DNA of 64,000 nucleotides. Source: Podarcis gaigeae (taxonomy: Eukaryota). The notes under the pieces were generated by a model, which was given only the letters and a program-made list of their open reading frames with translations, had not been told where the DNA came from and did not search any database. A program made the translations under genes and the position numbers. The DNA lies in the NCBI GenBank assembly GCA_964106915.2, contig OZ066920.1. One strand, written 5' to 3'. Of the stretch, positions 1-62,381 are shown piece by piece. Position 1 is the stretch's first letter, and each line of letters begins with the position of its first letter.

Positions 1-436
1 TTCAGAAGCAAAGGGACTCATATCAAGGCCTGAATCTGTGGCCTCTCTGAGCACCTTCCTCAGTGGCAATCTCAGGTAGTTTGTCCTTTTCCACTGACTC
101 CACTTGAGTCTCAGTCATCCTAAGCATCAGTGGCCTATTCCTTCGAGGATGTCTCATCTAGTACTATTTCTGGTATGAAAACATGATGGGTCACAACACA
201 TACGGTCCAAGCTGAACCAGACTTGTGACATCAGCACCCCATTTTGGAAGCCGCTGGAGTCTGTTCCCATTGAGAGACGTTTTGTTCGGGACTTTATTTT
301 AATGTCATATAGTAGTAGTTTGCAGAAAACAACTTCTAGGGAGCACCTGATGTTACAGTACATACGATGTCGGCAGTGTTTACATACATACTTACATACA
401 TACTGTAAATGATTAAAAAGGATGTGAAATGACCAT

Positions 437-852
437 GTTGTTGTTGTTGTTTAGTCATTTAGTTGGGTCCAACTCTTTGTGACCCCATGGACCAGAGCAC
501 GCCAGGCACTCCTGTCTTCCACTGCCTCCCGCAGTTTGGTCAAACTCATGTTTGTATCTTCGAGAACACTATCCAACCATCCTGTCCTCTGTCGTCCCCT
601 TCTCCTTGTGCCCTCCATCTTTCCCAACATCAGGGTCTTTTCCAGGGAGTCTTCTCTTCTCATGAGGTGGCCAGAGTCTTGGAGCCTCAGCTTCAGGATC
701 TGTCCTTCCAGTGAGCACTCAGGGCTGATTTCCTTAAGAATGAAGAGGTTTGATTTTCTTGCAGTCCATGGGACTCTCAAGAATCTCCTCCAGCACCATA
801 ATTCAAAAGCATCAATTCTTCAGTGATCAGCCTTCTTTATGGGCCAGCTCTC
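437..852 (-). mobile_element. BovB (RTE-clade) LINE, 5'-truncated
   Basis: ORF 451-780 with RVPWTAR...LEKTLMLGK; (CAA)n tail; TSD gaaatgaccat at 426-436 and 853-863. Confidence 0.92.
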
Positions 853-1138
853 GAAATGACCATAATATATATTTAAAAATCATACACACACCACTGTTTT
901 GCTTAATTCAGTAACTTAAAATGCAGCATTTCCACCTTGGGCATAGACATTTGCTGAAATAAGTAAAATAAATTTCTTATATTGTATAATCTACCTGTAC
1001 TGTTAACAATGCTGCCATTGATTTTTTTAGTCTGCAAACGCTCTGTGGTTGTCAGGTCTGATGCTGAATGGATTGCAGTTCTTCATACATCAGTGCCCCC
1101 TCTTCTGTAGCGAACATGATTTCAGCAATGAACTAGTC

Positions 1139-1141
<3 letters not shown>

Positions 1142-1171
<30 letters not shown>
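1142..1171. repeat. (CA)n microsatellite
   Basis: direct reading. Confidence 0.95.
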
Positions 1172-1173
<2 letters not shown>

Positions 1174-2891
1174 TCCCCTTGGAGAGATGTTCTAATTGTG
1201 AACTGTTCTCATGAAGCATGGAAGAATTTTCATAAAACAGAGGAAAATTAAATGCCATGATTAATTTATATGGATTCATAGACTACACAGTCACGAAATG
1301 TTACAGATATCAGCTACTTTGGCCTCCAATATGAAATGGGTCATAAGCTTTCCTAAAGATCAAGGGCACAGACCATTAAGGTACAATTTCATAGTTTTGT
1401 AAAGTCCTGTTGGAATCAATGGTAGTTAAGTGCAGGGAATTATGGATAAGATTGCACGGCACAGATACACATACTTAAGTGCCCTTGTTTTTATGAATGC
1501 AGCTGTATTGTACTGCAGCCAATGGTTCCAATCCAACTGCATGCACAAGGAACAGCTGTGGCCATACAAGTGTAGCCTTTTTTTTTTAAAAAAAAGCTGA
1601 AACCTTGCAAATCAGCATTTTGGTGGAGAAGAGGTAACACATCAAGGGGACGTAATTTAGCCTTCTCCCCCTTCAAAACAGCCAATCAGCTGGATTTCAA
1701 CATTGTTAAAAGGATATGTCCCAGCTGTTGTATCGAGAATGGGAATTATGGCCTGCAGCACCCATTTACCTAGAATTTCCCATCAAGTTCAAGACCAATG
1801 CAACAGCAAGATGAACTCAAAAGGAATAAATGAAAAAGAACAGAAGGGTTTGAAAGGAAAGGGATGGGCTGGGTTAAACTTAAGCAAAATGAAAACCTTG
1901 CTCTAATGGGTGTTGGAAGGGTAATAATGTTACTGCTTCTCAGAGGCAAGAACATTGCAAAGAAGCAAGAAGCATCAGAGATCAAAGCAATTTAGCATCT
2001 CCCCTCCTCACTGCAAATCACTTGAATTGGAGAGCCTTGGTCACAAAATCATTCCTATTTTCAAGGTAGACCCATCAGTCACAATGGAGCCCCCCTCTTC
2101 CTTCACAGAAAATTCATTATATGGCAAGCTGTTTTGTTTTAGCAAGTCTGGTGGGTTTTTTAAAAATGTCTGAACCACCACGGTGCGATGAAGCACTTCA
2201 GGATGTCTCTGCTTCTGTTTGGGACACTTGGGACAGATCCCCTTTTGTCCAAATCTTTTGTGAATCTCTAGTATCTTTCCTAATTTTCCCAAACTGGTTA
2301 CATGCAGTGTGCTACAAAAGGGCAGCTGCTTTCTACTTGAATTTCCAGCGTAATGAATTTGTTCTGTGATTTAAGAAGATGCCTTTACTTTTTTTAAAAT
2401 AGATCCCTGGTACTTTTGGATCATGTTCTGTAAAATGTGTTGTGTTCCAAACAGTCTCTGTTCTTAATTCCCCGCCTCCTCGCCATGGCAACTCGGAGTC
2501 CCTCCTACGTTTGTTGATAGCAATGACTGTTTGAGTTAGAAAGTCATTTCTGAAGCAGATGGAGTGTGCTAGGTGCTAAACTGGCGCTGAATAATCCAGC
2601 AATAAAGTAGACATCAGGTATCCATTGTGGCATTTGTCCTCGGTTCAGGATTTAGCCTGCATTTCACAGTTCAGATTTAGCACCTTAAGGGAGTATCACC
2701 TTGTTTGTTCAAATAAGAAACAGCCACTGTTTTTCCCAAAAATGTTTTGACTGTGAACAGCATGGGTAGTGTGACTGGGAGGGTAGGGAGGAGCGGTGGA
2801 ATACCATTCCAAAATGCATTTTCCACAGCTCCCCCCTCCCATGTTACATGTTGTGGTTCCTGCCTGTAACTCACAACTTGAGTTGGATGTA

Positions 2892-3117
2892 CAGTGGTAC
2901 CTCGGGTTAAGTACTTAACTCGTTCCGGAGGTCGGTACTTAAGCTGAAACTGTTCTTAACCTGAAGCACCACTTTAGCTAATGGGGCCTCCTGCTGCTGC
3001 CGTGCTGCTGGAGCATGATTTCTGTTCTCATCCTGAAGCAAAGTTCTTAACCTGAAGCACTATTTTTGGGTTAGTGGAGTCTGTAACCTGAAGCGTATGT
3101 AACCCGAGGTACCACTG
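2892..3117. mobile_element. Tc1/mariner (Tigger-like) MITE
   Basis: TIR CAGTGGTACCTCGGGTT...AACCCGAGGTACCACTG; TA on both flanks. Confidence 0.9.
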
Positions 3118-3173
3118 TATTAAATAGTTTGAGGGTGGTGGTTCACTCACTTTGATTGTATTATAAAGTATTT

Positions 3174-3388
3174 GAGGTGTGTGGAATGTTAGGGGAGGGA
3201 TAGTACCTCTGGTGGGGGCTCATGTTGTGGTCCTTCTGGGGTAGCTTTTCCACCTTTGGTCCCCACCCTACACCCAGCTCTCATTCGTAGAAGCTGTCAT
3301 CGTGTGATACAGCTTTGTCAGGCTGGCTAAACCAGGTGAAGGTAGACCATGGGTCTCAAATCCTCAGTGAGTTAGGGAGTTCTCCTGC
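3174..3388 (+). mobile_element. 5' part of a non-autonomous retroposon with a decayed HDV-like ribozyme head
   Basis: reverse complement of 5718-5733 plus 5973-6166; keeps GGCTAAACCAGGTGA; has internal deletions. Confidence 0.65.
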
Positions 3389-3468
3389 CAATGTTATTTT
3401 GCACTATGTCAGACACCTTGGGCATGCACAAAATCTACATCTACAGAACAGTTGAATGAGTTCGAAGT

Positions 3469-3909
3469 AAGGAGGGCAACCAAAATGGTCAAAGGCCTGG
3501 AAACGATGCCTTGTGAGGAACGGCTAAGGGAGCTGGGCATGTTTAGCCTGGAGAAGAGGAGGTTAAGGGGTGATATGATAGCCATGTTCAAATATATAAA
3601 AGGATGTCACATAGAGGAGGGAGAAAGGTTGTTTTCTGCTGCTCCAGAGAAGCGGACACGGAGCAATGGTTCCAAACTACAAGAAAGAAGATTCCACCTA
3701 AACATTAGGAAGAACTTCCTGACAGTAAGGGCTGTTCGACAGTGGAATTTGCTGCCAAGGAGTGTGGTGGAGTCTCCTTCTTTGGAGGTCTTTAAGCAGA
3801 GGCTTGACAACCATATGTCAGGAGTGCTCTGATGGTGTTTCCTGCTTGGCAGGGGGTTGGACTCGATGGCCCTTGTGGTCTCTTCCAACTCTATGATTCT
3901 ATGATTCTA
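3469..3909 (+). mobile_element. CR1 LINE 3' end (young)
   Basis: ORF ...[16 protein letters not shown]...; terminal (ATTCTATG)n. Confidence 0.92.
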
Positions 3910-5235
3910 AAAATGATGATTAAAAAAAAATCATCTGGGAAATCAACTGTAACCACCATCACCACCACCACCAGAAGTCAAATCCCCAATGGTGGTATAG
4001 CGGTGTTGTGTTTTCCTGAAAGTAGTGGTTTTCAACACTGAAGGTTGCTGGTCCCACCAATGGAAATTCTAATGAGAAACTGGCCTTTAGCAGGAGGCTC
4101 AGAAGGACAGGGAGGAGAGAGGAGGAGACGTATGCAGCTCTGGGGAAACCCTGGGGAAACCTACCCATGAGCAGTTTGAAAACTGGTTCATGAAGTGGTG
4201 CATATGTATCTTATGTTTTTCCATGCATCAGGCAGTGGAACATGGTGAAGAGTTCCTGGACACAGGGGAATTAATATTGTTTGGTCTTCTTAAAATACAA
4301 CTGCAATTTCCACATGCTTCCCAGCTAATTTGTCTTTGGTTCCAAATCTTGCAGTCAAGAATGCAAAAATTCATTTTTTCCACCTACAGACCACCTCTGC
4401 GACCATGATTCTGTCATTTGATGGGGGAAGGACTGGGATTAAAATATATGCTAAAAATTAATCCCCTTCATCTCACAACTTTCTTCTGTTATATTTAATG
4501 TGATCCCACCTCCTTTCCAAGTAAAAGAGTCAAGAAGTATCACAACTCAATTTACTTTTCAAGTTATGCTATGCTTGAAAATATCAAATTATACTGTGAA
4601 AGATATTGTATTTAATTTTTTTTGCTGTGAAAGAATTTATAGAAGCAATTTCTGGTAGAACTGTTGAAGCATTTGTTTTTCATTGTCACCCTAGTTTACA
4701 TTGTTCTTGGTTTTTCTCTCTCTTTTCCTGTTCAGGCTCTGATCTGGGTCACTAACTACTTTTATAGATCAAATGTGCATGTAATATCATCTTCTGGATC
4801 AGAGACCTTTATGCTTCAGGTTTTTCTCGTCGTTTCTGTTTCCCGTTCTCACCTTTGCTCCTTAAACACCTAAGTATCATTTTGCGGTTTCAAATCTGCA
4901 TTTGGTTTTTTGTTCCCAGGCATCATTTGGGAGCTCAAAAAACAAGTCAGGTTTCTTGTGACCTTCTTCTCAGTTCAATGATTTCTTCTTCTCAATGATT
5001 TTCCGTGCTGGTTGTGCCAGCATTATTCAGTACCATCCTGTTCTTAGCAACATTACATTTTGTGATTTGGTCTTTTTATTGTTGTTGTTGTTGGCACCTG
5101 TCTATCTCTAGAGACAATGGAGTGCATTTCCAGGGGTGAAGTCAGACTGCTGAAGAATCATAGCACCTTCTGTGGCTGCAGTGACTAGTAACTCATAAAT
5201 GCTGCCTCCCACATTGTTTTGGCTGCGTGACCTCT

Positions 5236-5447
5236 GAGAGCCAGTGTGGTGTAGTGGTTAAGAGCGGTAGACTCGTAATCTGGGGAACCGGGTTCGCGTC
5301 TCCGCCCCTCCACATCCTCTGAAGTCTCTCAGCCCCACTCACCTCACAGAGTGTTTGTTGTGGGGGAGGAAGGGAAAGGAGAATGTTAGCCACTTTGAGA
5401 CTCCTTCGGGTAGTGACAAAGCGGGATATCAAATCCAAACTCTTCTT
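5236..5447 (+). mobile_element. Squam3-type tRNA-derived SINE
   Basis: GAGAGCCAGTGTGGTGTAGTGGTTAAG head with A/B boxes; CTT tail. Confidence 0.8.
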
Positions 5448-5733
5448 CTGAGGCAAAAGCCTGGGCTGTGTATATGTCTGCCCAGATGACAAGACCCCCC
5501 TCTCAGCCTTGCTGATGTGGTCCAAAGGAAAGCCTTTCTTATGAAGACAGCGGAAGTTTAGGATCAGAGTTGCGCTCTCCTAGATGGGCTACCTTTCCAG
5601 GTAGACGAGCCCCATCTGCCCCTCACTTCCCTCTACAGCACATGCAGAAACAGCCTTCTTGCCCATTGGACCCACTATCGGTCTCATCCACTCAATCTGC
5701 AAGAGCCTTTCTTTGCATGCAGGTGAAGTCCTT

Positions 5734-5942
5734 GAGAGCCAGTGTGGTGTAGTGGTTAAGAGTGATAGACTCGTAATCTGGGGAACCGGGTTCGCGTCTC
5801 CGCTCCTCCACTTGCAGCTGCTGGGTGACCTTGGGCCAGTCACACTTCTCTGAAGTAGGAAGGGAAAGGAGAATGTTAGCCGCTTTGAGACTCCTTCGGG
5901 TAGTATCAAATCCAAACTCCTCCTCTTCTTCTTCTTCTTCTT

Positions 5943-5972
<30 letters not shown>
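5734..5972 (+). mobile_element. Squam3-type SINE with long (CTT)n tail
   Basis: same head as the 5236 copy; CORE-like GTGACCTTGGGCCAGTCAC. Confidence 0.8.
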
Positions 5973-5973
<1 letters not shown>

Positions 5974-7236
5974 ACTTACTGAGGGTTTAAGACCCATCAG
6001 CTGCCCTTACCTGATTTAGCCAACCAGCCAAAATCATTTCCTGGGCGTGTGGCCGCTTTCGCATTCTGACAGCTCCTAGGAGCCACAGGTGAGAGCTGAG
6101 TTCAGGGTGAGGACTAAAGGTGGACAGATTACCCAAGAAGCAGCATGACATGTCCCCCACCACCCCTGTCCTTTTTTTATGCATAGTTTAATTCGGATTT
6201 CAGAATCTGTCCCCCCCCCCCGTTCACTGTTGTGCATATTTGTGTTGCATGCATGTATGTGTGCATGCTTGAAAAATATTGGCATTATCTGTAATAATTT
6301 TCATTTTTAAGAGTATTACAGGAATTATTTGAGTTTGGGTTTTTTGTACATTTATCGATTTCACCCATACAAATAACAGAATTTAAAACATAAATAATAT
6401 TCTGAGCACAATTGAAATAAAAACTCACTTCCAAAGATTATTAGGCACAGCAAAAACAACACAATAATTACTCTCTGCAAAGTACAGTGGAAACACGATA
6501 AATGCCACTGTTCTTCTGGATGTTACTACAGCAGAAATAAACAATGAGTTCCACAAAGTAGCATACTGAGATGGTGGCATTACAATCACCCGTTTTCTTC
6601 TTCACATTTATGACAAAATCAAGCCATTCTGATCCAAAACTCTCTTTTTAGACCCCGCCCCAAGCCAATTTTGTCTGCTTTTCCACGAAAAGGTTTAAAA
6701 AGCTTTTTAAAAAAACAACAGCTCTATACCCAGGAGTCAGTGCACTTGCTGCTTGTTCTCTTATCCTGGCTTTTGTTATGAACAATGGCATTTAACGTTT
6801 CTGCATCCCGGCCAAATTAGTATTGCTTTTCAGTCAGAGGTTGCAAAAATCTTTTAAAGTTAAAAATACCAATTTTCCCCATAAGGCACCCAAATCACAA
6901 TCCTTACCTTTATTGATAAACTCTGGATGAGAAGTCAGGGGGGCTAGCAGTGAAATACCAGACATTAAAGTTCCCTTTCTATCTTTCCAAATTATTAACA
7001 CAAACTTATGTTTCAAATAAGGCAGTTCCCATATTGCATATACTTGTGCTGATAGTTGCAACTCATCTGCTGTTGGGGGTTGGGGAATGCATGCATAGCC
7101 ATCAAAATTCTGGAAGAAGAGATGCTGTGTTGGGCCCTTCGGGGATATTAGATGCAGGAGGAAATATACTAGCATACTGTTATCAGTTCATTTTATTTGT
7201 ACAGACTTTAAAGGTTATTTTTTTGGGGGGGATATT

Positions 7237-7551
7237 CTAGGACTTGCCGATCAGAAGGTCAGCGGTTCGGATCCCCGCGACGGGGTGAGCTCCCGTTGCT
7301 CGGTCCCTGCTCCTGCCAACCTAGCAGTTCAAAAGCACATCAAAGTGCAAGTAGATAAATAGGTACCGCTCCGGCGGGAAGGTAAACGGTGTTTCCGTAC
7401 GCTGCTCTGGTTTGCCAGAAGCAGCTTAGTCATGCTGGCCACATCTCCCGGAAGCTGTATGCCGGCTCACTCAGCCAATAAAGCGAGATGAGCACCGCAA
7501 CCCCAGAGTCGGTCACGACTGGGCCTAATGGTCAGGGGTCCCTTTACCTTT
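7237..7551 (+). mobile_element. Sauria SINE (5'-truncated)
   Basis: matches the other copies in the window; ACCTTT tail. Confidence 0.9.
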
Positions 7552-10287
7552 GCTTTAATGCTCATGACACAGTTTTCACTAGAAAATCATTTTGGATCGT
7601 TTTCTGATTCTAATTTTTTTTGAAGGGCATAATATTTTCTGATGAATGCATGTGTCGTGGATACCACTGATCCATTTTTATTCTGTGGAAAGGAAGTTCC
7701 CAATCATTTAGAATTTTTTTTTTGGGGGGGGGAGCCATTAGAATCATTATAAGTTATTATAACACCATCAGTGTACATGGCACTTTCAAGAAAAACATCA
7801 CTGCCATCCCCGCAAAAACCAGCTCTGATGAGCTAACAAATTTCAACTGTAGGAAAGAAAACATAGAAGGAAATGAGAGATTAAGGCTGGTCTCCAAGGG
7901 GACAAGCCATTGCCTTCATAGAAGAGGAAGGGTTTTGTTGTGAAGGCAATTGAAGGAAGAGAGAAAAATTGCTCCAAGTAAGTGTTCTGGAAGAGAGCAT
8001 TGGGAAAAGGAAGGGATAGCATGCAGGAGGCTTGAGGACAATAAAGAGTAGTAGAACTGGAATACGGTGGGCAGTCATGGAAAAAGTAATCTTCCACTAG
8101 TGAATTGATGTTGCTGTCACGTCATCACTTGGCTAATCTTGCCATGGTTTTGTACTAATTCTACTCACTTTGTATTCTTGTACAGTTCCTTCTCCATTCC
8201 AAGGAAAGCTGCCCCTTCATATTATCAAGAGAAGGAAAAGCAGTGTCTTGACTAATCATCTAAAATTAACTACATAGCGGGGAGCTGTCTCTTTAATGTA
8301 GCAAACGAAGGCATAATGAGATCTGCTGTTGGAACTAGACAAATTTCAAACTGGAACAGGCCACACATTATTCATGGTGAGGGCTATTAGTCATTCGAGC
8401 AACGTATCTTGGGACATGATGATGGTTGAGAAATGAGTAATCAATGGATTCTAGGCCTAATTCTCAATGAGGTAGTAAACCTGTATCTATGCTGTGCAAC
8501 TTCCGTTTGCAGGTGTTGGCTGGCAGGAATGAATGCTCTTCCATGCAAAATAATTCCCCACATATGTCAGCTAGAATGTCAAAGGCCAAGATTCCCATCT
8601 AACCTTTCTTTTGGCATGCAAGCTTTTTCTGTGTAGATTTTTATTTTTATTTTGTATGGAGAAGCATTGAACTTGCAGGTAGTACAATCTGAGGGTAGTG
8701 CAGCCAAAAGATGGCTGGGTGAGAACATTTTAAAAGCTTTGTTCTGGATTATCTAGAAACGATGGGTCTCCTTTGATGAGAACAGAAAGTGTCATGGGTG
8801 AATTGGCTCATAGGGACACAGGACATTTTCTGCAGAGCATATTAGGGCCATTTGACTTCAGGAGGATATGTTTGTACCACTCCCTTTGCTCCAGCAATTA
8901 TTATTTTTTTGGGGGGGGGTTAAAATTTATACCCAGCCCTTCAGTTCTAATTAGCATTTCCAGGAGAGCTTACAACAGGCAATGCAAAATTTCCAAGAAT
9001 ATAATGCAGCAGATGAGTTAGTTTTAGATGATTAATAAAAACACTGCTTTTCCTTCTCTTGATTATCTGAAGGGACATAATCAAATGAATAACTTTAACA
9101 AGGGTTAAAAGGAAGTCTTGTCCCAGTCCAGTCATTCCCCCTACCTCCACCCCTGCCGATAATCTGGGGCACCATGTAAATGACAGTGATGTTATGGCAT
9201 TTAGTGTTCTTGTCAGAGAAGCATTAGGGTTGCTGCTTCTTTTTTGTCCTGATCAGTGGGTGCCACGCTGTAACTGTGACTCATGCTTTCCTTTCTGGCT
9301 CAGGACATGTGGTCAGGGCCTGCAGAGCACACGCTGCAAAAGGCACTCTATTTGTAGAAAATATAAAGCACAAGGAGCTGAAAGCATGCATGCAAAGACA
9401 ATTAACATTTTAGTTTACCTATTTAAAAACACGATGACACTATGGCTGAGAACAGGCATGCAACAGAATGAAGTAGTGTAGCCTTGAGCTGATAGAATCG
9501 ACTGCAGGTCAGGAGTGCCATTTTTTTAATGCTCTCATGTAAACATTATTATTATTATTATTATTTAAAAAAACATTCCTTCAAATAGAAAATCAACACG
9601 TCAGGGAGTTTACATACTGATTTTCTCCCTGCTGTGCTAGTTACCTGCTTGCAGAAAGTTATTTTTGCTTGTATTTGTACTTAGAGAAGCATCTAAATAG
9701 GTAATCCCTCACCTGCAGTTTGAAACCCTCTTTTCCACTTCCAAATTCTGCTGCCTTCTTCTGTGGCATCTGCCTCTAGTCTTAGATGCCATGCTGTATC
9801 CTGACAGCAGGCTACCCTTCCAATGGACGCTCACAACCTGATTTTGCATGTTCACAATTCCTTGCCATTCTGATATCTCCTGAGAGTGCATTTCAGGTAG
9901 TTTCGCTCTACCACACCTGATCCAGTTTCTCTATACTTCAAGCTCTTCTTGCCTTTATTTTTTGAGAAAAGCGTGCTCGTGGAGTAATTTATTTATTTAT
10001 TATTATTTTTTGCAGCCAGTGGTGTTTGTGTGGCTATTAGGAATATAGGAAGCTTTTTTTTATCAAGTCAGCCTCATTGGTCCACCTCTATTGTTTACAA
10101 TGACTGGCTGTTCAGGTTTTTGGACATACTCTTGTCCCATCTCTACCTGGATGTGCCAGGAACTGAATCTGAAACCTGCTCTTCATTCAAAGCTGCATTC
10201 TCTGTCACTGGCTACAGACTCCCCCTAAAAGATTCTGCAGGCTGCCAAGTTTACTGAGAGTTAGGCAGGTGACCAATTAATAACAAT

Positions 10288-10898
10288 AATAGAATTGTAG
10301 TGTTGGAATACTACAATGCTACCTGCAATAAAGGAATATCTTCTTTCTTTGGCGATCACTTGTAGCCGAGTAAGATTGTCTTCCATAAACATGGTTTTAA
10401 CCATGAGTCCGTAAGTGACTGTGGAGGCCGATACTGGATCCACACGTCCTTCCACAGTGGGGACATTGGTTTCCAGGCGGGAGTTGATCACAGTGTAGAT
10501 TTGCCAAGCGTGCCTTCCTCTTAGCACATTTCTCCCTTGCATCCTGAGTTTGAGTGTCTTCAAAGCCCATGACACCTTTGGTAAAGGCTGTTCTCCAACT
10601 GGAGCGCTCGCAGGCCAGTGTTTCCCAGTTGTCAGTGTTTATACCACATTTTTTTAGATTTGCCTTGAGACAGTCTTTAAACCTCTTTGTTTACCACCAG
10701 CATTACGCTTTCCATTTTAAAGTTTGGAATAGAGTAGTTCCTTTGGAAGACAGTCCCACTCGATGGATCATCACCTTGTCGTGGTGAGTGGACTTGCATG
10801 TTCCTCTGACCCTTGCGAGCAAAAGGAATATGCAACTGCCCCATACAGGGATTGAACCTGCAACTTTGGGGTTATCAGCACCACACTCCAACCAACTG
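10288..10898 (-). mobile_element. tRNA(Ile-like)-headed, CR1-tailed SINE split by an RTE insertion
   Basis: minus-strand AGTTGGTTGGAGTGTGGTGCTGATAAC...GGTTCAATCCC head at about 10838-10898; tail TTCCAACACTACAATTCTA near 10290-10308. Confidence 0.6.
10340..10821 (-). mobile_element. RTE-clade LINE 3' end (not BovB) with extra 5' segment
   Basis: frameshifted translation LPKELLYSKL-NGKRNAGG / KRFKDCLKANLKKCGINTDNWETLACERSSWR; TSD aaaggaatat at 10330-10339 and 10822-10831. Confidence 0.8.
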
Positions 10899-12244: not shown

Positions 12245-12600
12245 CTTGTTGTTGTTGTTTAGTCATTTCCGACTCTTCGTGACCCCATGGACCAGAGCAC
12301 GCCAGGCACTCCTGTCTTCCATTGCCTCCCGCAGTTTGGTCAAACTCATGTTTGCAGCTTCGAGAACACTGTCCAACCATCTCGTCCTCTGTCGTCCCCT
12401 TCTCCTTGTGCCCTCCATCTTTCCCAACATCAAGGTCTTTTCCAGGGAGTCTTCTCTTCTCATGAGGTGGCCAAAGTACTGGAGCCTCAGCTTCAGGATC
12501 TGTCCTTCCAGTGAGCACTCAGGGCTCATTTCCTTAAGAATGGATAGGTTTGATCTTCTTGCAGTCCATGGGACTCTCAAGAGTTTCCTCCAGTACCAAA
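12245..12600 (-). mobile_element. BovB LINE 3' fragment
   Basis: ORF 12263-12580; (CAA)n tail; TSD tgtgtagg. Confidence 0.92.
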
Positions 12601-14356: not shown

Positions 14357-15012
14357 TCAACTTATTCACTGCCCTATACCTGAAGGTCTCAGGGCAGTTC
14401 ACAACAAGACGGCAACATATAAAATCAAACCCAAAGCAGTAACCCAGAAACTCCCCCCCCCCACAAGCCACATTCTAAAAGGTTGTTGGATGTCAATAAG
14501 ATCAACCAAAAGGTAAAGGTAAAGGGACCCCTGACCATTAGGTCCAGTCGTGGCCGACTCTGGGGTTCCGGTACTCATCTCGCTTTATTGGCCAAGGGAG
14601 TCGGCCTACAGCTTCTAGGCCATGTGGCCAGCATGACTAAGCCGAACCAGAGCAGCGCATGGAAATGCCGTTTACCTTCCCCCCAGAGTGGTACCTATTT
14701 ATCTACTTGCACTTTGACGTGCTTTCGAACTGCTAGGTTGGCAGGAGCAGGGACCGAACAACGGGAGCTCACCAAAGGCCTGGTTACAAAGGAACGCTTT
14801 TGCTTGGCTCCTAAAGGTGTATAATGAAAGCGCCAGGTGAACTTCCCTGGGGAGAGCATTCCATAGATGGGGAGCCACTGCAGAGAAGGCCTGTTCTCGT
14901 GTTGCCACCCTCCGGACCTCTCAAGGAGGAGGCACACGAAGAAGGGCCTCAGATGATGAACACAGAGTCTGGGTCAGTTTATATGGGAAGAGTCGGTCCT
15001 TGAGATATTGCG
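14356..15012 (-). mobile_element. L2 LINE 3' end, interrupted by a Sauria SINE
   Basis: ORF ATREQAFSAVAPHLWNALP, an L2 C-terminal motif. Confidence 0.75.
14509..14773 (-). mobile_element. Sauria SINE (5'-truncated) nested in L2
   Basis: AAAGGTAAAGG tail; accaaa(a)gg duplicated at the flanks. Confidence 0.9.
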
Positions 15013-18911: not shown

Positions 18912-19033
18912 GGTTAGAGTGTTGGACTAAGACCTGGGAGATCAGAGTTCAGATCCCCACTTGATTTACCTTGGAACCTGTGTCTTAACTAAATCAAGTG
19001 ACAAGGCACTTTGTTTATTTATTTATTTATGTT

Positions 19034-19378
19034 GCGGGTGGCGCTGTGGGTTAAACCACAGAGCCTAGGGCTTGCCGATCGGAAGGTCGGCGGTTCGAAT
19101 CCCTGCGATGGGGTGAGCTCCTGTTGCTCGGTCCCTGCTTCTGCCAACCTAGCAGTTTGAAAGCACGTCAAAGTGCAAGTAGATAAATAGGTACCGCTCC
19201 AGCGGGAAGGTAAACGGCGTTTCCGTTTCACCAGAAGCGGCTTAGTCATGCTGGCCACATGACCTGGAGAAACTGTCTGCGGACAAAACGCCAGCTCCCT
19301 CGGCTAGTAAAGAGAGATGGGCGCCGCAACCCCAGAGTCGTTCGCGACTGGACTTAACTGTCAGGGGTCCTTTACCTT
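19034..19378 (+). mobile_element. Sauria SINE
   Basis: GCGGGTGGCGCTGTGGGTTAAACC head; TTTACCTTT tail. Confidence 0.9.
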
Positions 19379-19421
19379 TTTTGAGTTACTTTATGATCTC
19401 CGTTTAGCAGCCAGTGGCTCT

Positions 19422-19555
19422 TTTGACAGTGGAATTTGCTGCCAAGGAATGTGGTGGAGTCTCCTTCTTTGGAGGTCTTTAAGCAGAGGCTTGACAACCA
19501 TATGTCAGGAGTGCTCTGATGGTGTTTCCTGCTTGGCAGGGGGTTGGACTCGATG
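19422..19555 (+). mobile_element. Internal fragment of the young CR1 family
   Basis: near-identical to about 3736-3868 but lacks the terminal repeat. Confidence 0.88.
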
Positions 19556-26701: not shown

Positions 26702-26906
26702 ATATTTATTTATACCCTGCCTTTTCCCCCTGACAGGGACTCAAGGTGGCTTACATATAAAACAGGAACAGCTAAAAGCATAACAACCTGTTGAATGTAT
26801 GCCATATGCTTATTTTTACATTTGTGCTCCTTATAGTCCCCAAAAACTTCAGAGTCTTGAGTTGCCTCTTCCTGTCAGAGACCACCTAGTGGATGTTTTC
26901 TGTAGA

Positions 26907-27239
26907 GTAAAGGTAAAGGGGCCCCTGACCATTAGGTCCAGTCGTGACCAACTCTGGGGTTGCGGCGCTCATCTCACTTTACTGGCTGAGGGAGCCAGCA
27001 TACAGCATGACTAAGCCACTTCTGGCGAACCAGAGCAGCGCACGGAAACGCCGTTTACCTTCCTGCTGGAGCAGTACCTATTTATCTACTTGAACTTTGA
27101 CAAGCTTTCAAACTGCTAGGTTGGCAGGAGCAGGGACCGAGGAACGGGAACTCACCCCGTCTCGGGGATTCAAACCGCTGACCTTCTGAGTGGCAAGCCC
27201 TAGGCTCTGTGGTTTAACCCACAGCGCCACCCCCGTCCC
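26907..27239 (-). mobile_element. Sauria SINE with internal deletion
   Basis: head and tail both present; degenerate TSD ttttc(t/a)gtag. Confidence 0.9.
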
Positions 27240-27564
27240 TTTTTTCAGTAGTGTAACACTTCCTTATATCCCATAGATTTTCTGTAGTATGGTGGTTGCC
27301 CTCCTTCACCTTTGCCCTTATTTTCCCTCCCTCGCTCTCTCCTGGCTCAGCGCTGTGCTTACTCATCCTTCAAATTTCATCTGTTCTCTCTTTCTATATC
27401 CCTGGGACCTCCCTGTGCTTGTTCCTACACCTTGTGTTTTACGCAGATGCAGTGTGTCTTGGGAATCTTCCAGCATCACTGCCGTCCTGTTGCATCACTT
27501 CTTGTTGGTCTGAATAAGCAGCCTCTGCATTCTTCCAACACTTAAACCTACCTTCTTCTTGGAA

Positions 27565-27948
27565 AGGAGCTGGGCATGTTTAGCCTGGAGAAGAGGAGGT
27601 TAAGGGGTGATATGATAGCCATGTTCAAATATATAAAAGGATGTCACATAGAGGAGGGAGAAAGGTTGTTTTCTGCTGCTCCAGAGAAGCAGACACGGAG
27701 CAATGGATCCAAACTACAAGAAAGAAGATTCCACCTAAACATTAGGAAGAACTTCCTGACAGTAAGAGCTGTTCAACAGTGGAATTTGCTGCCAAGGAGT
27801 GTGGTGGAGTCTCCTTCTTTGGAGGTCTTTAAGCAGAGGCTTGACAACCATATGTCAGGAGTGCTCTGATGGTGTTTCCTGCTTGGCAGGGGGTTGGACT
27901 CGATGGCCCTTGTGGTCTCTTCCAACTCTATGATTCTATCATTCTATG
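27565..27948 (+). mobile_element. CR1 LINE 3' end (young)
   Basis: ORF 27576-27869 nearly identical to the 3469 copy; ATTCTAT tail. Confidence 0.92.
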
Positions 27949-29356
27949 AAGAAAATATAGCTTAGCTACCTAGTCTCTAAAAAAAGAAATCTAAATCGGG
28001 GACCAAGTGTCAACAGATAGATTTCCAGCTAACAGACCAATAAATGAGAATGACTTCTGTGCAATCTAGTCAGTGGAAGACGTTTGATCTAAGAATTTTT
28101 CTTCTTCTTAATTTTTCTGTGCTTTCAGTTAAGAAATAAACTACATGTACAGTTACTGTGTCTGTATTCGCAACCGCATGAGGTCCTGGCTGTTGCTTTG
28201 TGAATTTTGAACTGCTTCCGTTTGAGCTCAAGTATCCATTGCATCTAATATGTTACAGCCAGAAATAGGAGAGAGAGAAAATCATTGGCGCTGGCATAGC
28301 ATTTTTACGTATCATGGGGACCAGATGGCTAGGGTTTTTCTAGCTGCATATATCCAAATACTCGCATTGTTTCAAAAGATTAGGGTGAAGTTTTCAGGCT
28401 GTATAAATAGTTCCTGGGGATAGTAATTATAGCTGGTATCCCCATAAACTTGGAAGTCCCTCAATATATTTCTTAGCAGGGCTCTTGTGTTGGGGTTTAC
28501 TCAGCAGAAACCTCCAGCTGGAACGCAACCATACTTTAAATGGCCTGTCAGACTGAATTTATTCGTAGAATTGGCTTTAGGCTCTTTGTACTAGGCAAAA
28601 CTCTGGCCTTCTCTAAATGCATGTTGTTGACCTGCAGAAATCCACTTCCTGACTCCTCTAGCTATCCTACAGGAGTCAGCACTATGCGGGACAGTTCTTA
28701 CTTCCGTTGTGTTGCATGTCAACACTGTACAAGGAGCCACAAAGACTGTTATAACTGGAGAAATTTAGCAAAGAGAGAAAAGGCTTGGTACTTAACATAA
28801 AGGGTGATAGGAAGAAGATTTCATTGTTGAAGCTACCAAGTATTAAAGCATTCAGTGTCCATTAAACTGGATCCTGATTAGAGGAGAGTCCTGCTATCAG
28901 AATATATTCCACCAGTTTGAGTTAATACTATTCATGATCAGCAGCATATTGTGACAGTTCATTAAGACCCTTTCCGCCCCCCCCCCCATGCTCCAAATAG
29001 TTCATAATTTAATTACAGTAGTTTTCCTTCAGTCAACATATTTACAATAGTTACTAAGATGAAGCAAGCTTTGTCTCTATCAATTTAATTTCTTCTCTTT
29101 CTTTCTCTCAGGCATCTGACTAGGGAGCAATTCATGTAGAAATAGCTAGAACTAGCAAATTTATTAACATTTCAGGACCAGCTGACATTCATTCTTTTCT
29201 TCAAGTGTAGTGCCAGCCGGCATAGAAGTGCCCGAAAAATTCTCTTATCTAGTAAAACTTGTCATGAATATTAGCTTCATAATAGTTTGGTTCCAAGAAG
29301 ATACCACAGGGATGGGTGGATAAAGAAGATTATGTATGGTCTATGTACCTTTTGAA

Positions 29357-29701
29357 GGGACGCGGATGGCACTGTGGGCTAAACCACAGAGCCTAGCACT
29401 TGCCGATCAGAAGGTTGGCGGTTCAAATCCCAACAATGGGGTGAGCTCCTGTTGCTCGGTCCCTGCTCCTGCCAACCTAGCAGTTCGAAAGCACGTCAAA
29501 GTGCAAGTAGATAAATAGGTAACGCTCCGGCGGGAAGGTAAACTGCGTTTCCGTGCGCTGCTCTGGTTGGCCAGAAGCGGCTTAGTCATGCTGGCCACAT
29601 GACCCAGAAGCTGTACGCTGGCTCCCTCAGCCAATAAAGCGAGATGAGCGCCGCAACCCCAGAGTCGGCCACGACTGGACCTAATGGTCAGGGGTCCCTT
29701 T
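29357..29701 (+). mobile_element. Sauria SINE, full length
   Basis: GGGACGCGG head; TSD ccttttgaa; followed by (CA)n at 29715-29748. Confidence 0.92.
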
Positions 29702-29712
29702 CCTTTTGAAAG

Positions 29713-30255: not shown

Positions 30256-30581
30256 TGTTATTGGCATTGTCTGTCTCGAGAGACAATGGAGCGCACCTCT
30301 GGGGGTGAAGTCAAACCTCTTTGTTCGCAGCACTAAGGTGACCTCTCTGGGGCACAAGCCTGGGCAGTGTGTATGGAGGTCCTGGGCTGCCCAGATGAGA
30401 AGACCTTCTCCCCTCTTGGCCTCACTGATGTGGTCCAAAGGAAAGCACAGCAATATGTTTGGCATCAGCTTGGTCATAGGAGTTGCTGGAAGGAAGCATA
30501 CAAGGCACCACCCAACTGTCTTAGGGACTCCAGTCCAGATTTGTGTAGGGTTTACTCCTTAGCCTTTTCTTTTCCCGAAGA
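30256..30581 (-). mobile_element. 3' portion of the ribozyme-headed retroposon family
   Basis: aligns with 5095-5545 (gagacaatggag..ggggtgaagtca..gatgtggtccaaaggaaagc). Confidence 0.7.
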
Positions 30582-31340: not shown

Positions 31341-32830
31341 TCCCTGCTTTAGACTATGAAAAAGGTTGCTGGAGTAATAAAGGGTTTTAATGCCCCTTTT
31401 AAAATGTGTTTGGGAGGTGAGTTGCTGTTGTTAATATTAAGTATTTTGTGTTTTTATGTTGTAGAAGCCCTGAGACCTGTGGGTATAGGGCGACATAAAA
31501 AATTAGTAAATAATACATAATTTTAATGGGGACACTGGGGGGAAAAATCCTCATTGGCCTCTGTTCCATTTCTTCCCATTCATCTTGCACTTTTCCCATA
31601 GCCCCACATTCTACCTTTTGTATAGTCTTCCACAGGAAGCAGCGTGTAACATTCTCCTCCCTCCCTCCCTGGACCATCTGGTCTTTTACTGAGAGAGAAC
31701 ATCTGGCACTGGGTGGGATAGATGGGTCAAGTCAGCCCAATAGGTTCAGCTGGAGCCAGGAGTTCTCTCTGACTTGGTAACTAAGCCAATGGGCTTGTCC
31801 CTTTTCAGCCATGTGACTGTACGAAGCAAACATTCCCTTTTAGAATTGATAGCTGTCCGATTAGGTAGATCAGATTTAATCAACAGCTGCAAGTGGTACT
31901 TAAGAAAATAATCACAGCAAAGTGGGTCAGCGGAATTCGGAAGTGAGTCAGGCCTTTGGGAATCTTGCCCAGTCATTTGTTTTAATGAATACCCAAGGTT
32001 TTAAAGCCAGCTTACCAGTTTTAATCAGTGGCAACCCATACTGTGCTGAAGTACCCAAGTATATGCAAAAATTACCATGAACCAGTAGTTCATAGAGGTA
32101 GGCTCTTTGACTGCAAGTTGTAATGGTTTTCCTTTGTGGTCTGATCCTATGAGGTTCACGGCCTCATATCTTTTAAAAGAAGCAATAAATTTTTTATTAT
32201 TTGGATCACATTGCGAAGTGCTTACTTGTGTACGCATTTTTTATATCATTATTTGTCTTGTTCCCATTCTGCATATGATAAATAATAAAGGATTATGGGG
32301 AAAGTAGTTTAACAGGGGTGGGAAAATGACTTTAGAGGGACATATTTGTGCATATGCTTTTCTCTCGCATTGAAATCTGGGGAATGCAAAAAAACAAAAA
32401 AAACCACACCCTAAAATTGTCCTATCAAAATACAAAGTGAGCCTTAGTTACTACTAGGATGGACAGGTGTCTAGGTATCTGTCGAAATGTCCAGAATTTC
32501 TCTCTCCCTTTTTTTCCCTTTTTTCTTTTGGTACATTCCAGAACATTCATCAAAACTGAAGCGGCTATTGATTTTGGCAAACTGATATTCAGTTAAGGTA
32601 GATAAAAGATGAATGAAAAATTGGGTCCTGTTAATTACCGTATATACCAAAATGTATTTGTTTATTCCGTATAAAAAGTGTTGCCTTGCGGTACTTTTAT
32701 GGTTAATTTAAATTTATGAGACTATATACATCGTAATTGAGCCAGGGCTCAACCCTGTAACTTGTTTTCGTTCTCATTTTTCGACTTAGAATATACAACA
32801 CATGCATTAAGAATAAATATTTATCTAGCT

Positions 32831-33559
32831 GTTGTTGTTTAGTCATTTAGTCGTGTCCGATTCTTCGTGACCCCATGGACCAGAGCACACCAGGCACTCC
32901 TGTTTTCCACTGCCTCCCGTAGTTTGGTCAAATTCATGCTGGTAGCTTCGAGAACACTGTCCAACCATCTCGTCCTCTGTCGTACCCTTCTCCTTGTGCC
33001 CTCCATCTTTCCCAACATCAAGGTCTTTTCCAGGGAGTCTTCTCTTCTCATGAGGTGGCCAAAGTATTGGAGCCTCAGCTTCACGATCTGTCCTTCCAGT
33101 GAGCACTCAGGGCTGATTTCCTTAAGAACTGATAGGTTTGATCTTCTTGCAGTCCATGGGACTCTCAAGAGTTTCCTCCAGCACCATAATTCAAAAGCAT
33201 CAATTATTCGGTGATCAGCCTTCTTTATGGTCCAGCTCTCACTTCCATACATCACTACTAGGAAAACCATAGCTTTAACTATACGGACCTTTGTCGGCAA
33301 GGTGATGTCTCTGCTTTTTAAGATGCTGTCTAGGTTTGTCATTGCTTTTCTCCCAAGAAGCAGGCGTCTTTTAATTTCATGGCTGCTGTCATCATCTGCA
33401 GTGATCATGGAGCCCAAGAGAGTGAAATCTCTCCCTCCCTCCATTTCTTCCCCTTCTATTTGCCAGGAGGTGATGGAACCAGTGGCCATGATCTTGGTTT
33501 CTTTGATGTTGAGCTTCAGACCATATTTTGCACTCTCCTTTTTCACCCTCATTAAGAGG
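32831..33559 (-). mobile_element. BovB LINE 3' fragment with an open 237-aa RT C-terminal ORF
   Basis: ORF 32839-33552; TSD ttatctagct; (CAA)n tail. Confidence 0.95.
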
Positions 33560-33759
33560 TTATCTAGCTACCACACTTGCTAACCACAATTTTCCTCTTA
33601 AATATAATTCTTGAGTTTGAACTGCAAAAAGTCGATTTCCACCATTGCCACTCCCGTGCAGCTGAGATAAGGACTTTGGGCTTTCTGTACAAAAGGACTA
33701 TGGGTCATGGGGCCCCTTTTTAATTATTTAGAATTTACATGCTAGTTATAGATAATATG

Positions 33760-34112
33760 GGGACACAGGTGGTGCTGTGGGTTAAACCACAGAGCCTGGG
33801 ACTTGCCGATCAGAAGGTTGGCGGTTCGAATCCCCGTGATGGGGTGAGCTCCCATTGCTCAGTCCCTGCTCCTGCCTACCTAGCAGTTCGAAAGCACGTC
33901 AAAGTGCAAGTAGATAAATGGGTACCACTCCAGTGGGAAGGTAACGGGCTTTCCGTGTGCTGCTCTGGTTCGCCAGAAGCGGCTTAGTCATGCTGGCCAC
34001 ATGACCCGGAAGCTGTACGCCGGCTCCCTCGGCCAGTAAAGCGAGATGAGCGCCGCAACCCCAGAGTCGGTCACAACTGGACCTAATGGTCAGGGATCCC
34101 TTTACCTTTACC
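33760..34112 (+). mobile_element. Sauria SINE, full length
   Basis: 13-bp TSD tatagataatatg. Confidence 0.93.
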
Positions 34113-35029
34113 TATAGATAATATGAGGCTGTATCCATCTATTTGGCAGTATATGTCTCTTTGAATGTCAGCATGATGTGCATAAAGGCAAAACTGAAGA
34201 TGTCATCCAGTGTATCATGAGTTTAACATGGTTTGTTCTTTCTGGTATGCATTAATGAAGCAGATGGCTATCTTGGAAAGCCTGTTACAAGAAGAACACA
34301 AATTAAGGGTTCTTCGATTAAGTTATGATTGCGTTGACTATGAAATTTTAATTAATAAATTCCAGGGTATAGTATCCAAATAATGCTATGTGCTTGTTTG
34401 AAGTGGAAGGTAGATAATTAAAATGCATATTACGGTATTTAGATTTTGGATCATGCAATTTTGCATTTAAGTAAACAGATATAATTGCAAACGGACTAAC
34501 AAGTGGAAAAAAGGTTTCTGTAAGGAAAAGAAGGAGGCCCACAGTGCCAGATTAATGTTGTTAGATTTCTTTTATTCAGAATTGATGGCAGTCTTCCACG
34601 AAAGCAATATTTATGAAGGGAAGCTCTAAGTTTGATTCTAGTGCATACCAATCCACATTTTGCCACAACTAGTTATACATAACTGCCTGTGAACCTAACC
34701 TGGATCAAAAAATTACTGTGACCTGGTTCTGCTCCTCCATCTTCAATCGTCTCTTGGTCCTGGGAGACAGTGGAGTGGGGGGGGGGGCAAGAGGAGAAGG
34801 TGTGGAAATCCTTGATTCTCCACCAGCCTGACCTCTCTCTCCTTCCTCCTTGCACCTGTTCTTGGCTCTCCAATCCTGTAGCTTCTTCTATCTCTGACTC
34901 TCATCTCCTGGCTGTTTCAGGCTCCCCCAGATCACTCATCCCTTCTTCAAAGTCAGTCTCCAACCCCAACCCCTCTATGGGTGCTCACTCATCAGTACCC
35001 AGTACCCACTACCACACGCCAGTCCCCAG

Positions 35030-37741: not shown

Positions 37742-38039
37742 TGAAATATACTCGGAGTTGAGAGTGGATTTCATGCTCTTTATTCAGCTCATAGTGGTGA
37801 GGAGGAATGGAAGTTCCCCCAGAATGTCTGCTTTATATACATTATTTACACAATGGGCCTCACGTGATTGGCTAATTCCGGGATTCTCCTGTAGGCCAAT
37901 CAGGTTGTGGATTCACTTCCACCTGCAGCTGGATTGGGTGGCTCCTGTGGACCAATCAGACTGCTGCATTCTGAATCCTATTGTTCTTGGACCAATCAGA
38001 CTGCTGCATTTAGGTTCCTATTCAACTCAGTACATAACA
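37742..38039 (-). mobile_element. Solo LTR (298 bp)
   Basis: TG...CA ends; 5-bp TSD gagag; minus-strand TATATAAA and AATAAA; CCAAT repeats. Confidence 0.9.
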
Positions 38040-44516: not shown

Positions 44517-44882
44517 TGAAATATACTCAGAGTCAAGAGTGGATTTCATGCTCTTTATTCAGCTCATAGTGCTAAGGAGGAATGAAAGTCCCCTCAAAGT
44601 ATCTGCTTTATATACATTATTTACACAATGGGCTGCACGTGATTGGCTAATTCTGGAATTCTCCTGTAGGCCAATCAGGTTGGGGATTCACTTCCATCTG
44701 GAGCTGGATTGGGTGGCTCCTGCAGACCAATCATACTGCTGCATTGTTCTAGGACCAATCAGACTGCTGCATTCTGAATCCTATTGTTCTAGGACCAATC
44801 AGACTGCTGCATTTTGGATCCTATTGTTCTAGGACCAATCAGACTGCTGCATTTTGGATCCTATTCACCTTAGTACATAACA
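44517..44882 (-). mobile_element. Solo LTR (366 bp), same family as 37742
   Basis: TG...CA ends; 5-bp TSD cccca; expanded 40-bp CCAAT repeat. Confidence 0.9.
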
Positions 44883-51869: not shown

Positions 51870-52153
51870 TCCTCCCCCAATTCATGAACCGTGTTGTAGT
51901 CATCATTGTAACTGAAACAAACATACAGATGTCATACACGTAGTATACCCCTGCATCACCCGTTCCACCCTTGGAACTACCTGCAACTAGACTAGCCTTG
52001 GGCCTTACCATCTTGCACTTCTGACTAGTCTTGGCATCCTAGCTTTCCTGACTATCAAGAAGTTTCACACCTGGCTAGCAGCTCAACACAGGTCTTAGAA
52101 CCCGAAGTCTTGGGTTGCTTTCTCATGACTGTCTTCCGGTCTTCTCTCCACAG

Positions 52154-52286
52154 GTTGATAAAGATGTCCAGTCCCTACATGAACAACCTCATAATTCTTG
52201 GAGGGATGCTCTCCTATGCATCGATATTCCTTTTTGGCCTTGATGGATCTTTTGTCTCCGAAAAGACGTTTGAGACGCTTTGTACC
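52154..52286 (+). CDS. GABBR2: GABBR2 exon (probable exon 11; ICL1-TM2-ECL1, [44 protein letters not shown])
   Basis: ctccacAG / GTaagt; 133 nt; lies within ORF 52110-52421. Confidence 0.97.
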
Positions 52287-58159: not shown

Positions 58160-58665
58160 GTTGTTGTTGTTTCGTTGTTTAATCGTGTCTGACTTTTCGT
58201 GACCCAATGGACCAGAGCACACCAGGCACTCCTGTCTTCCACTGCCTCCCACAGTTTGGTCAAACTCATGCTGGTAGCTTCTAGAACACTGTCCAGCCAT
58301 CTCGTCCTGTCATCCCCTTCTCCTTGTGCCCTCCATCTTTCCCAACATCAGGGTCTTTTCCAGGGAGTCTTCTCTTCTCATGAGGTGGCCAAAGCACTGG
58401 AGTCTCAGCTTCAGGATCTGTCCTTCCAGTGAGCACTCAGGGCTGATTTCCTTAAGAATGGATAGATTTGATCTTCTTGCAGTCCATGGGACTCTCAAGA
58501 GTCTCCTCCAGCACCATAATTCAAAAGCATCAATTCTTCGGCGATCAGCCTTCTTTATGGTCCAGCTCTCACTTCCATACATCACTACTGGGAAAACCAT
58601 AGCTTTAACTATACGGACCTTTGTTGGCAAGGTGATGTCTCTGCTTTTTTTTTGGCTTTTTTTTT
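58160..58665 (-). mobile_element. BovB LINE 3' fragment
   Basis: ORF 58310-58630; (CAA)n tail; TSD ttttagtagaacat. Confidence 0.92.
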
Positions 58666-59050
58666 TTTAGTAGAACATAGGAACGCCCTAACCTTCCTCA
58701 CTGGATTGCAACCCAACTCCTACTTTAAAAGATACATTTATTTATTACATTTTTATGCTCCCTGCCATGAATATCAAAACGTATCCATTATTTCCTCTAC
58801 GAGTTTGCAACTCTCATTACACTTGGTTCATAGTTGTTTTTCTGCAGTCGTGAAAGTTTTTAACCTTGTTTGAAAGGAAAGCTGCCGGTTTTCCTATTTG
58901 AGAACTGTGGGCTTGGTGCTTAAAACCCTAAAACTGATATAAAGGAGTTATTCTTTTTTCCCTTAGTCTAACCCAAATGTATAAAGTTTTGTTAATAAAG
59001 TCAGATATGGGGAGGAAAAAAACTGATTTTTTTTTATTCGTTTGTTTCAG

Positions 59051-61204: not shown

Positions 61205-61558
61205 AAGTAAAGGTAAAGGGACCCCTGACCATTAGGTCCAGTCGTGATCGACTCTGGGGTTGCGGCACTCGTCTCGCTTTATTGGCCTGGAAGCTGGCAT
61301 ACAGCTTCTGGGTCATGTGGTCAGCATGACTAAGCCGCTTCTGGCAAACTGGAGCAGCGCACAGAAACGCCGTTTCCCTTCCCACCAGAGCAGTACCTAT
61401 TTATCTACTTGCACTTTGACGTGTTTTCGAACTGCTAGGTTGGCAGGAGCAGGGACCGAGCAATGGGAACTCACCCTGTCACGGGGATTCGAACCGCCGA
61501 CCTTCTGATTGGCAAGTCCTAGGCTCTGTGGTTTAACCCACAACGCCACCCGCGTCCC
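61205..61558 (-). mobile_element. Sauria SINE, full length
   Basis: TSD tta(t/g)gaagaaagagta. Confidence 0.92.
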
Positions 61559-62251: not shown

Positions 62252-62381
62252 GGGTAGAAGCATAAACAAAATTGGGATTCACCTGTTCTGTTGCAGGTAT
62301 CCCCATCAAACCTTGACCTATCTCGAGGCCTCCAAGATTTTTTTTCATAGAAACTACAGTTGCTGTGTGATCCTGGGTGCA

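Follow-up and report, generated by a model that had tools for sequence, protein, structure and literature searches.

A repeat in the Podarcis gaigeae genome, termed copy 1, probably represents a high-copy retroposon without an open reading frame, whose RTE-derived head carries a predicted HDV-like ribozyme with a 19-nt hairpin in L3 and whose enzyme is likely to be borrowed. The predicted HDV-type fold is real at the level of the family. Copy 1 itself is a decayed member; it lies in the window, the whole stretch of 64,000 nucleotides that was analysed (contig OZ066920.1 of assembly GCA_964106915.2), together with two partial copies of the same family. Coordinates are collected in Table 1.

Table 1. 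Elements of the family in the window and the parts of the predicted ribozyme in copy 1
Feature	Position	Strand	Remarks
Copy 1, decayed ORF-less RTE-derived retroposon	5080..6166	-	head homologous to L001/L002 5' ends
P1 5' strand, copy 1	6160..6166	-	6/7 match
J1/2 remnant, copy 1	6094..6159	-	outer 5' arm of the long L001/L002 hairpin (P1.2-like) missing here
P2 5' strand and U6085	6085..6093	-	U6085 able to pair with A6015 or to lengthen P3
P3 5' strand, GGC	6082..6084	-	
Extended L3	6054..6081	-	start of L3, inserted hairpin, then one G
L3 hairpin, 19 nt	6055..6073	-	5/6 pairs in copy 1; 6/6 with the majority letter at 6058
P3 3' strand, GCC	6051..6053	-	
P1 3' strand	6043..6050	-	G6046 is an insertion specific to copy 1
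P1.1 3' strand	6041..6042	-	AG in copy 1 (broken), GG in intact relatives
P4	6021..6036	-	6036-6032 with 6025-6021; in copy 1, four G-U and one A-U
J4/2 with putative catalytic C6019	6016..6020	-	
P2 3' strand	6006..6013	-	7/8 pairs in copy 1; the majority letter at 6008 makes it 8/8
3' terminal motif and (CAA)5 tail	5079..5125	-	also in copy 3; resembles RTE 3' ends weakly
SINE insertion 1, tRNA-type, (TCT)16 tail	5733..5972	+	antisense to copy 1
SINE insertion 2, tRNA-type, same family as insertion 1	5235..5449	+	antisense to copy 1
Candidate target-site duplication	5' copy 6168..6180; 3' copy 5079-5070	-	A-rich imperfect repeat
Copy 2, head with full-length 5' end	3175..3374	+	P1 5' strand where the family has it; deletions have destroyed the P3/L3/P1' core
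Copy 3, 3' part of the same ORF-less family	30256..30580	-	includes about 115 nt that copy 1 lacks

The fold of copy 1

An earlier note on this DNA had proposed an HDV-type double pseudoknot on the minus strand of copy 1. All the motifs that it listed are present at their coordinates, and position 6019 is indeed a C. In HDV numbering, 6081-6079 are taken by us as the equivalents of U20, C21 and C22, and 6076 as that of G25.

A relaxed HDV descriptor that accepts copy 1 also matches 27 of 100 dinucleotide-shuffled windows (mean 0.33 matches), and a strict descriptor, matched by 4 of 100 shuffled windows, rejects it. Taken alone, the fold of copy 1 does not exceed chance. A search of the whole window against Rfam at the gathering threshold gave no match, and at loose E-values L001/L002, the intact relatives described below, and copy 1 gave only 3 and 2 unrelated chance matches. 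Both the shuffled matches and the empty Rfam search are what would favour an over-reading of the sequence, in which the fold consists of chance pairings in a decayed repeat. This explanation is highly improbable: the relatives and the majority letters of related genomes restore every helix, and P1 and P4 show two-sided changes.

The description of copy 1 as decayed is borne out. P1.1 is broken, P1 is bulged, P2 and the L3 hairpin each have a mismatch and 32 nt of J1/2 are gone. In addition, a competing hairpin is favoured in its P3-L3 segment (-11.4 versus -4.3 kcal/mol). As a ribozyme, copy 1 is very likely dead.

Intact relatives

Relatives were sought with a pattern that fixed the inner part of P2, P3, the start of L3 and J4/2, and two metagenome loci were returned. 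Both L001 and L002 are intact full-length LINEs with a single open reading frame, of 1109 and 1096 amino acids, that displays RVT_1 and endonuclease domains (APE + RT). They are 52% identical to each other. Their assignment to the RTE type is based on these domains and on an N-terminal likeness to AviRTE, judged by eye; the nearest named homologues of the L002 protein are unannotated lancelet and catfish proteins. A second retroelement with RT-like open reading frames, presumably DIRS-like, adjoins the RTE of L002 on the opposite strand, and the 3' terminal motif of the L002 RTE is duplicated (L002 positions 1-3740 and 7970-8010).

With BLAST within the loci searched, the head of copy 1 matches L001 at 74% over 187 nt (E=3e-28) and L002 at 70% over 129 nt (E=2e-14), with a further stretch of 64% over 92 nt downstream. 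Judged by these alignments, the homology of the head to the intact relatives is far beyond chance. It extends from G1 on along the 5' ends of L001 and L002 and supports an RTE-type origin of the head.

Other searches added one locus. Pattern scans of genome and viral contigs for further relatives returned no loci, and two short-motif scans of viral contigs returned 40 and 9 loci, none of which (0 of 49) extends over the fold. A protein scan of viral contigs found nothing, and one of genome contigs found a single locus, L003, which is without its 5' end. BLAST against phage and plasmid sequences gave no match.

All helices of the HDV double pseudoknot can be formed in L001 and L002, which supports the fold as first proposed. 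Because the search pattern fixed them, the conservation of P3, the start of L3, the inner part of P2 and J4/2 is by construction. P1 forms with 7/7 pairs in both loci, an exact upstream complement being present to the 7 nt that follow P3 at the homologous place, and its second pair is changed on both sides (G-C in L002, U-A in L001). P4 forms with 5/5 pairs in both, four G-C and one G-U, and its second pair likewise shows a two-sided change, C-G versus G-C. P2 has 8/8 pairs in L002 and 8/8 in L001 with a 1-nt bulge in P2'; the L001 head fails the strict HDV descriptor. P3 has 3/3 pairs in all three cores (fixed by the pattern for L001 and L002). Neither P2 nor P3 displays a two-sided change.

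A GG that can form P1.1 directly follows P1' in both loci. The next bases in L001 are GCAA, which is also the sequence in HDV. The earlier note had taken 6041-6040 as the P1.1 partner in copy 1. This needs correction to 6042-6041; G6046 is an insertion. The partner is GG in L001, in L002 and in 8 of the 14 loose-end rows listed from related genomes (3 of the 4 largest).

In all three cores L3 starts with U-C-C-N-N-G and continues with two bases, the hairpin and a single G. The equivalent of G25 is kept in all three though the pattern left it free; the C of J4/2 was fixed. The usual L3 of HDV-like ribozymes is about 7-8 nt; with 26-28 nt and a hairpin in 3/3 cores, the family departs from this short-L3 feature. 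In L001 and L002 the hairpin has 5/5 aligned pairs; two of the changes seen are one-sided, giving G-U, and none is two-sided. The insert, which was first noticed in copy 1, is present in copy 1, L001 and L002 and is a trait of the family.

Of the 111 cells of a four-row alignment, 94.6% are paired, whereas sliding the partners lowers this to 29-43%. The covariation score of this alignment, which has few rows and a misaligned copy 2 core, was reached by 2 of 500 shuffles. For L001 and L002, folding predicts P3 together with the L3 hairpin and leaves C21 and C22 unpaired at 0.95-0.98; in energy, the P3-L3 segment is no better than its shuffles, of which 72 and 180 of 200 fold as well. Searches of the two heads against Rfam gave no HDV-family match even at E<=5.

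When the segment is folded by itself, a shifted register has the minimum energy in L001 as well as in L002. Here U6085 would pair with A6050, P3 would be longer, P1 would have 6 bp and L3 would be a 7-nt bulge on an uninterrupted P3-hairpin helix, an arrangement compatible with cleavage. The standard HDV-like P3 is 3 bp. Against the shifted register, copy 2, L001, L002 and the loose-end rows listed retain the U at P1 position 7, and a standard P1 has 6 or 7 bp according to the text available for PMC4908430. The shifted register is thus considered a rather unlikely form of the fold, and the positions in Table 1 follow the register with a 3-bp P3.

Copies in related genomes

Contigs from 4 of 20 listed runs of related genomes were aligned to positions 5977-6240 at 80% likeness; the aligned contigs are biased toward copy 1. 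In each of the four runs, 1233-1629 contigs match the head of copy 1, and the head is therefore a high-copy repeat.

The majority letters mend the defects of copy 1 in several helices. The letter at 6008 mends the P2 mismatch (88-95% of depth) and that at 6058 the mismatch in the L3 hairpin (88-93%), and P4 is mended by the letters at 6023 (58-69%), 6034 (61-87%) and 6033 (43-62%). The competing hairpin is abolished by the majority letter at 6075 (99%). No alternative letter is found at 6019 and at 6076-6093 among the rows listed, in contigs that are biased toward copy 1.

In P4, the pair of 6034 with 6023 is A-U in copy 1 and G-C by majority letters; this two-sided difference may be due to chance or may be a subfamily mark. 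Contig depth at 6067-6111, which spans P2, P3 and L3, is more than tenfold that of the neighbouring head, and core conservation or the identity threshold may explain it.

Altered letters make up 27-49% of depth at the CpG sites 6054/6055 and 6060/6061, which means that most copies decay freely. In three of the four runs, contigs bridge the 5' junction of copy 1 into the same flank. The insertion of copy 1 is therefore common to those organisms.

The 5' end and J1/2

G1 had been placed at 6166 in the earlier note. This position is not colinear with the family, in which G1 lies 32 alignment columns further 5', an offset seen for the G1 of copy 2, L001 and L002. In each of the four runs, 40-46 contigs part from copy 1 at 6162 and share at least 30 nt onward, the 30 letters compared ending short of the family G1, and the sequence beyond 6162 in the related-genome contigs matches that of copy 2 and L001. 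Because other copies extend at least 30 nt 5' of 6162, copy 1 is considered to have lost 32 nt of J1/2, which makes the place of its G1 uncertain. Its GGGGTG may be the true P1 strand with a 32-nt deletion behind it, or it may belong to J1/2 of a 5'-truncated copy and merely resemble P1. The 5' ends of the family thus do extend beyond G1 where G1 is set at 6166, an outcome that counts against the position given in the earlier note and not against the fold. Homology among copy 2, L001 and L002 starts at the family G1, as judged by eye in the alignment.

The P1 5' strand is found at position 78 in L001 and is doubled in L002, with identical copies at 3884 and 3893 that are 9 nt apart (3884-3899). 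A second GGGGTGT within J1/2 is seen both in L002 and in the loose-end rows at 6162 from related genomes. The first repeat is the likely cut site, because the compensatory P1 change of L001 is tracked by the first repeat only and the second is paired in the predicted J1/2 hairpin of L002. J1/2 as a whole is predicted to form one long hairpin in L001 and L002 (z -1.0 and -2.05), with a folding energy for which 28 and 8 of 200 shuffles, respectively, are as good.

The ORF-less family and its 3' end

Copy 1 without its two SINE insertions comes to about 632 nt. The length of about 640 nt proposed earlier therefore stands for copy 1. It does not stand for the family, whose length is about 780 nt or more, because copy 3 carries about 115 nt absent from copy 1 (junction placed by eye). 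The ORF-less 3' part is common to copies 1 and 3, the two copies in the window that have it. A search with tblastn and RTE proteins gave no match inside copies 1 and 3, as expected of an element described as having no open reading frame. The reported lack of a Pol III head also agrees with the data: a tRNA gene search of the element found none, and the head matches LINE 5' ends from its first bases. The (CAA)n tail is present as (CAA)5 at 5093-5079. The score of the candidate target-site duplication is equalled by 2203 of 20000 random 25-mers from the window (11%), so that the duplication is plausible, not significant.

The two SINE insertions in copy 1 belong to one tRNA-type family; they are 283 bp apart, are both antisense and differ in their internal deletions. 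With respect to the GABA-B receptor subunit 2 (GABBR2) exon found on the plus strand at about 52140-52283, copy 2 is the sole head in the same orientation, and its ribozyme core is deleted; copies 1 and 3 are antisense. So few copies give no basis for an orientation bias.

Copy 1 might be a one-off, an autonomous RTE that was internally deleted, in which case there would be no non-autonomous family and nothing borrowed. Two or more deletions, of 32 nt and about 115 nt, are indeed private to it, and the related-genome contigs cover only the head, a part common to autonomous and non-autonomous elements. However, copy 3 independently joins non-coding sequence to the same tail, with no match to RTE proteins, and the open reading frames of L001 and L002 stop about 30-40 nt before the tail. 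A one-off deletion is improbable, and slightly more so than a fold that does not cleave, which is discussed below. A non-autonomous family remains the favoured reading.

A short terminal motif of the copy 1 tail is shared with RTE 3' ends, as judged by eye. In the comparison of this tail with RTE 3' ends, 12 of 500 shuffles were as good for L001, a weak likeness, and 298 and 318 of 500 for L002 and L003; the likeness to L002 is not measurable. Two fragments in the window were also considered as partner and are unsupported, an RTE 3' fragment at about 10340-10750 (92 of 500 shuffles as good) and a BovB-like fragment at about 32.8 kb (86 of 500). By tail comparison, no partner LINE was identified among L001-L003 and these two window fragments. 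Motif searches in the supplement text of PMC5786205 and PMC4844689 matched no named family; the picture supplements of PMC5786205 could name it.

Other repeats in the window

The fragment at about 10340-10750 is the 3' part of a non-BovB RTE-type LINE on the minus strand, with 45% identity to the end of the L001 open reading frame and a different tail. BovB-like LINE 3' fragments are found at 438-852, 12246-12598, 32830-33567 and 58159-58670. They are mutually 91-94% identical and have CAA tails. Young LINE 3' fragments, which we take to be CR1-like, are present at 3526-3909, 19422-19555 and 27563-27946 and are 98-99% identical.

One SINE family has eight copies, at 7237-7557, 14508-14773, 19033-19380, 26893-27241, 29355-29708, 33760-34124, 61202-61560 and 62378-62748; one copy examined ends in ACCTTT repeats (Sauria-type). 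Both the CAA and the ACCTTT types of repeat tail are described in the text available for PMC13295347. Together, the BovB-like fragments and these SINEs would be in keeping with lizard DNA. A repeat of about 300 bp has two copies, at 37742-38039 and 44517-44882, and in the second a 40-bp unit is present three times.

Proposed mechanism

By analogy with the ribozymes of R2, L1Tc and RTE, the active ancestor probably cut its own RNA 5' of G1. Such cleavage would release the element from read-through transcripts and take over the role of a Pol III head. An RTE protein, acting in trans, would recognise the 3' end and the (CAA)n tail, and target-primed reverse transcription would insert the copies. 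The L3 hairpin would lie 3' of the equivalents of U20, C21, C22 and G25 and would be stacked on P3, a placement that would direct it away from the active site. As C21 and C22 are free in the predicted folds, the hairpin would not block P1.1. In copy 1, one change creates the competing hairpin. The short L3 is the only feature of an RTE-type HDV ribozyme that the element fails; in this model it would otherwise work like one.

A different function for the fold has precedents. It may be conserved with little or no cleavage and serve in translation initiation, in protein binding or as an internal Pol II promoter, in which case the L3 hairpin would mark a ribozyme whose role has changed. In L1Tc the same 77 nt are both promoter and ribozyme (PMC3383444), HDV-like folds have been proposed as IRES (PMC6765202) and some well-folded R2 ribozymes are without cleavage (PMC3774820), as far as the available texts go. 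As L3 is described as part of the catalytic core (PMC4908430, in the text available), a 19-nt insert could also impair the core. Nevertheless, the residues for the chemistry are all kept, namely the C of J4/2, the U and G of L3 and P1.1, and the L3 G was free in the search pattern. P1 covaries exactly at the first bases of the element, which would be needless for a promoter. A fold that does not cleave is therefore an unlikely alternative to a self-cleaving head.

A more far-reaching proposal is put forward tentatively, as one that may well prove wrong. The family may represent an active, predicted subtype of HDV-like ribozyme, so far undescribed, with a 19-nt hairpin in the catalytic L3. An RTE lineage found in distant animals, with thousands of copies in lizards, would have this subtype as its standard 5' end. 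The hairpin would serve as an arm for docking or switching, with either the RTE protein or J1/2 as its partner, and the subtype would be missed by models with a short L3.

Comparison with known systems

HDV-like ribozymes at the 5' ends of RTE, R2, R4, Baggins and L1Tc LINEs were reportedly described by Ruminski in 2011. They have the same helix order as the family described here (P1-P2-P3-P1.1-P4), the C of J4/2 and the U and G of L3, as well as the same position at the 5' end and a long J1/2. They differ in their short L3, whereas that of the present family has 26-28 nt with a hairpin, a form for which the literature search found no cleavage assay. The presence of such ribozymes at LINE 5' ends, including those of RTE, is also documented in the parts available of PMC5786205 and PMC6765202, and the available text of PMC3774820 describes the L3 G as important for HDV-like ribozymes and notes that dead or silent folds exist. 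The drz-Agam-2 ribozymes have a P1.2 domain, and a structured J1/2 is likewise predicted in L001 and L002; the peripheral domains of drz-Agam-2 are in J1/2, whereas the insert here is in L3 (PMC4908430, available text).

R2 SIDEs, NARTc, RIME and SIDER are likewise ORF-less, have a ribozyme and not a Pol III head, and borrow the enzyme of a parent LINE, as is proposed here (PMC3414825 and PMC4035085, in the parts available). The ribozyme heads of NARTc and SIDER are supported by assays, according to the available text of PMC4035085. Unlike these elements, the present family has an RTE-type parent, a vertebrate host, dispersed insertion and the L3 hairpin. RTESINE1/2, WALLSI3, MAR4_MD, RTE-N2_Lch and Bov-A keep the RTE 5' end, have no open reading frame and end in a microsatellite tail, as does the family described here, and the kept 5' end of such bipartite non-autonomous RTE elements has already been linked to a ribozyme (PMC5786205, available text). 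They differ from the family described here, whose 3' end can be traced to an RTE only weakly.

A ribozyme head combined with a borrowed LINE enzyme is thus already known for R2 SIDEs, NARTc/SIDER and bipartite RTE elements, and the L3 hairpin is the sole candidate novelty. No description of an L3 hairpin in HDV-like ribozymes was found in the literature; Ruminski 2011 and Webb and Luptak 2011 may show one. The available texts of PMC4870747 and PMC10879173 give no limits on L3 length.

Significance

The life cycle proposed here, with its ribozyme head and borrowed LINE enzyme, is known from other elements, and copy 1 is a fossil. If the proposal is true, an HDV-type ribozyme heads a high-copy repeat of an amniote genome. 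L3 belongs to the catalytic core of HDV according to the available text of PMC4908430, and the peripheral domains described in the texts available are in J1/2 and P4. If the L3 hairpin is natural and conserved, the core tolerates a new arm, a finding that would help both to engineer ribozymes and to design search descriptors. Even L001 and L002, the intact relatives, are missed by the Rfam models. If an active L3-hairpin subtype does exist, models with a short L3 would miss a class of ribozymes, and the ribozymes of vertebrate genomes would be undercounted.
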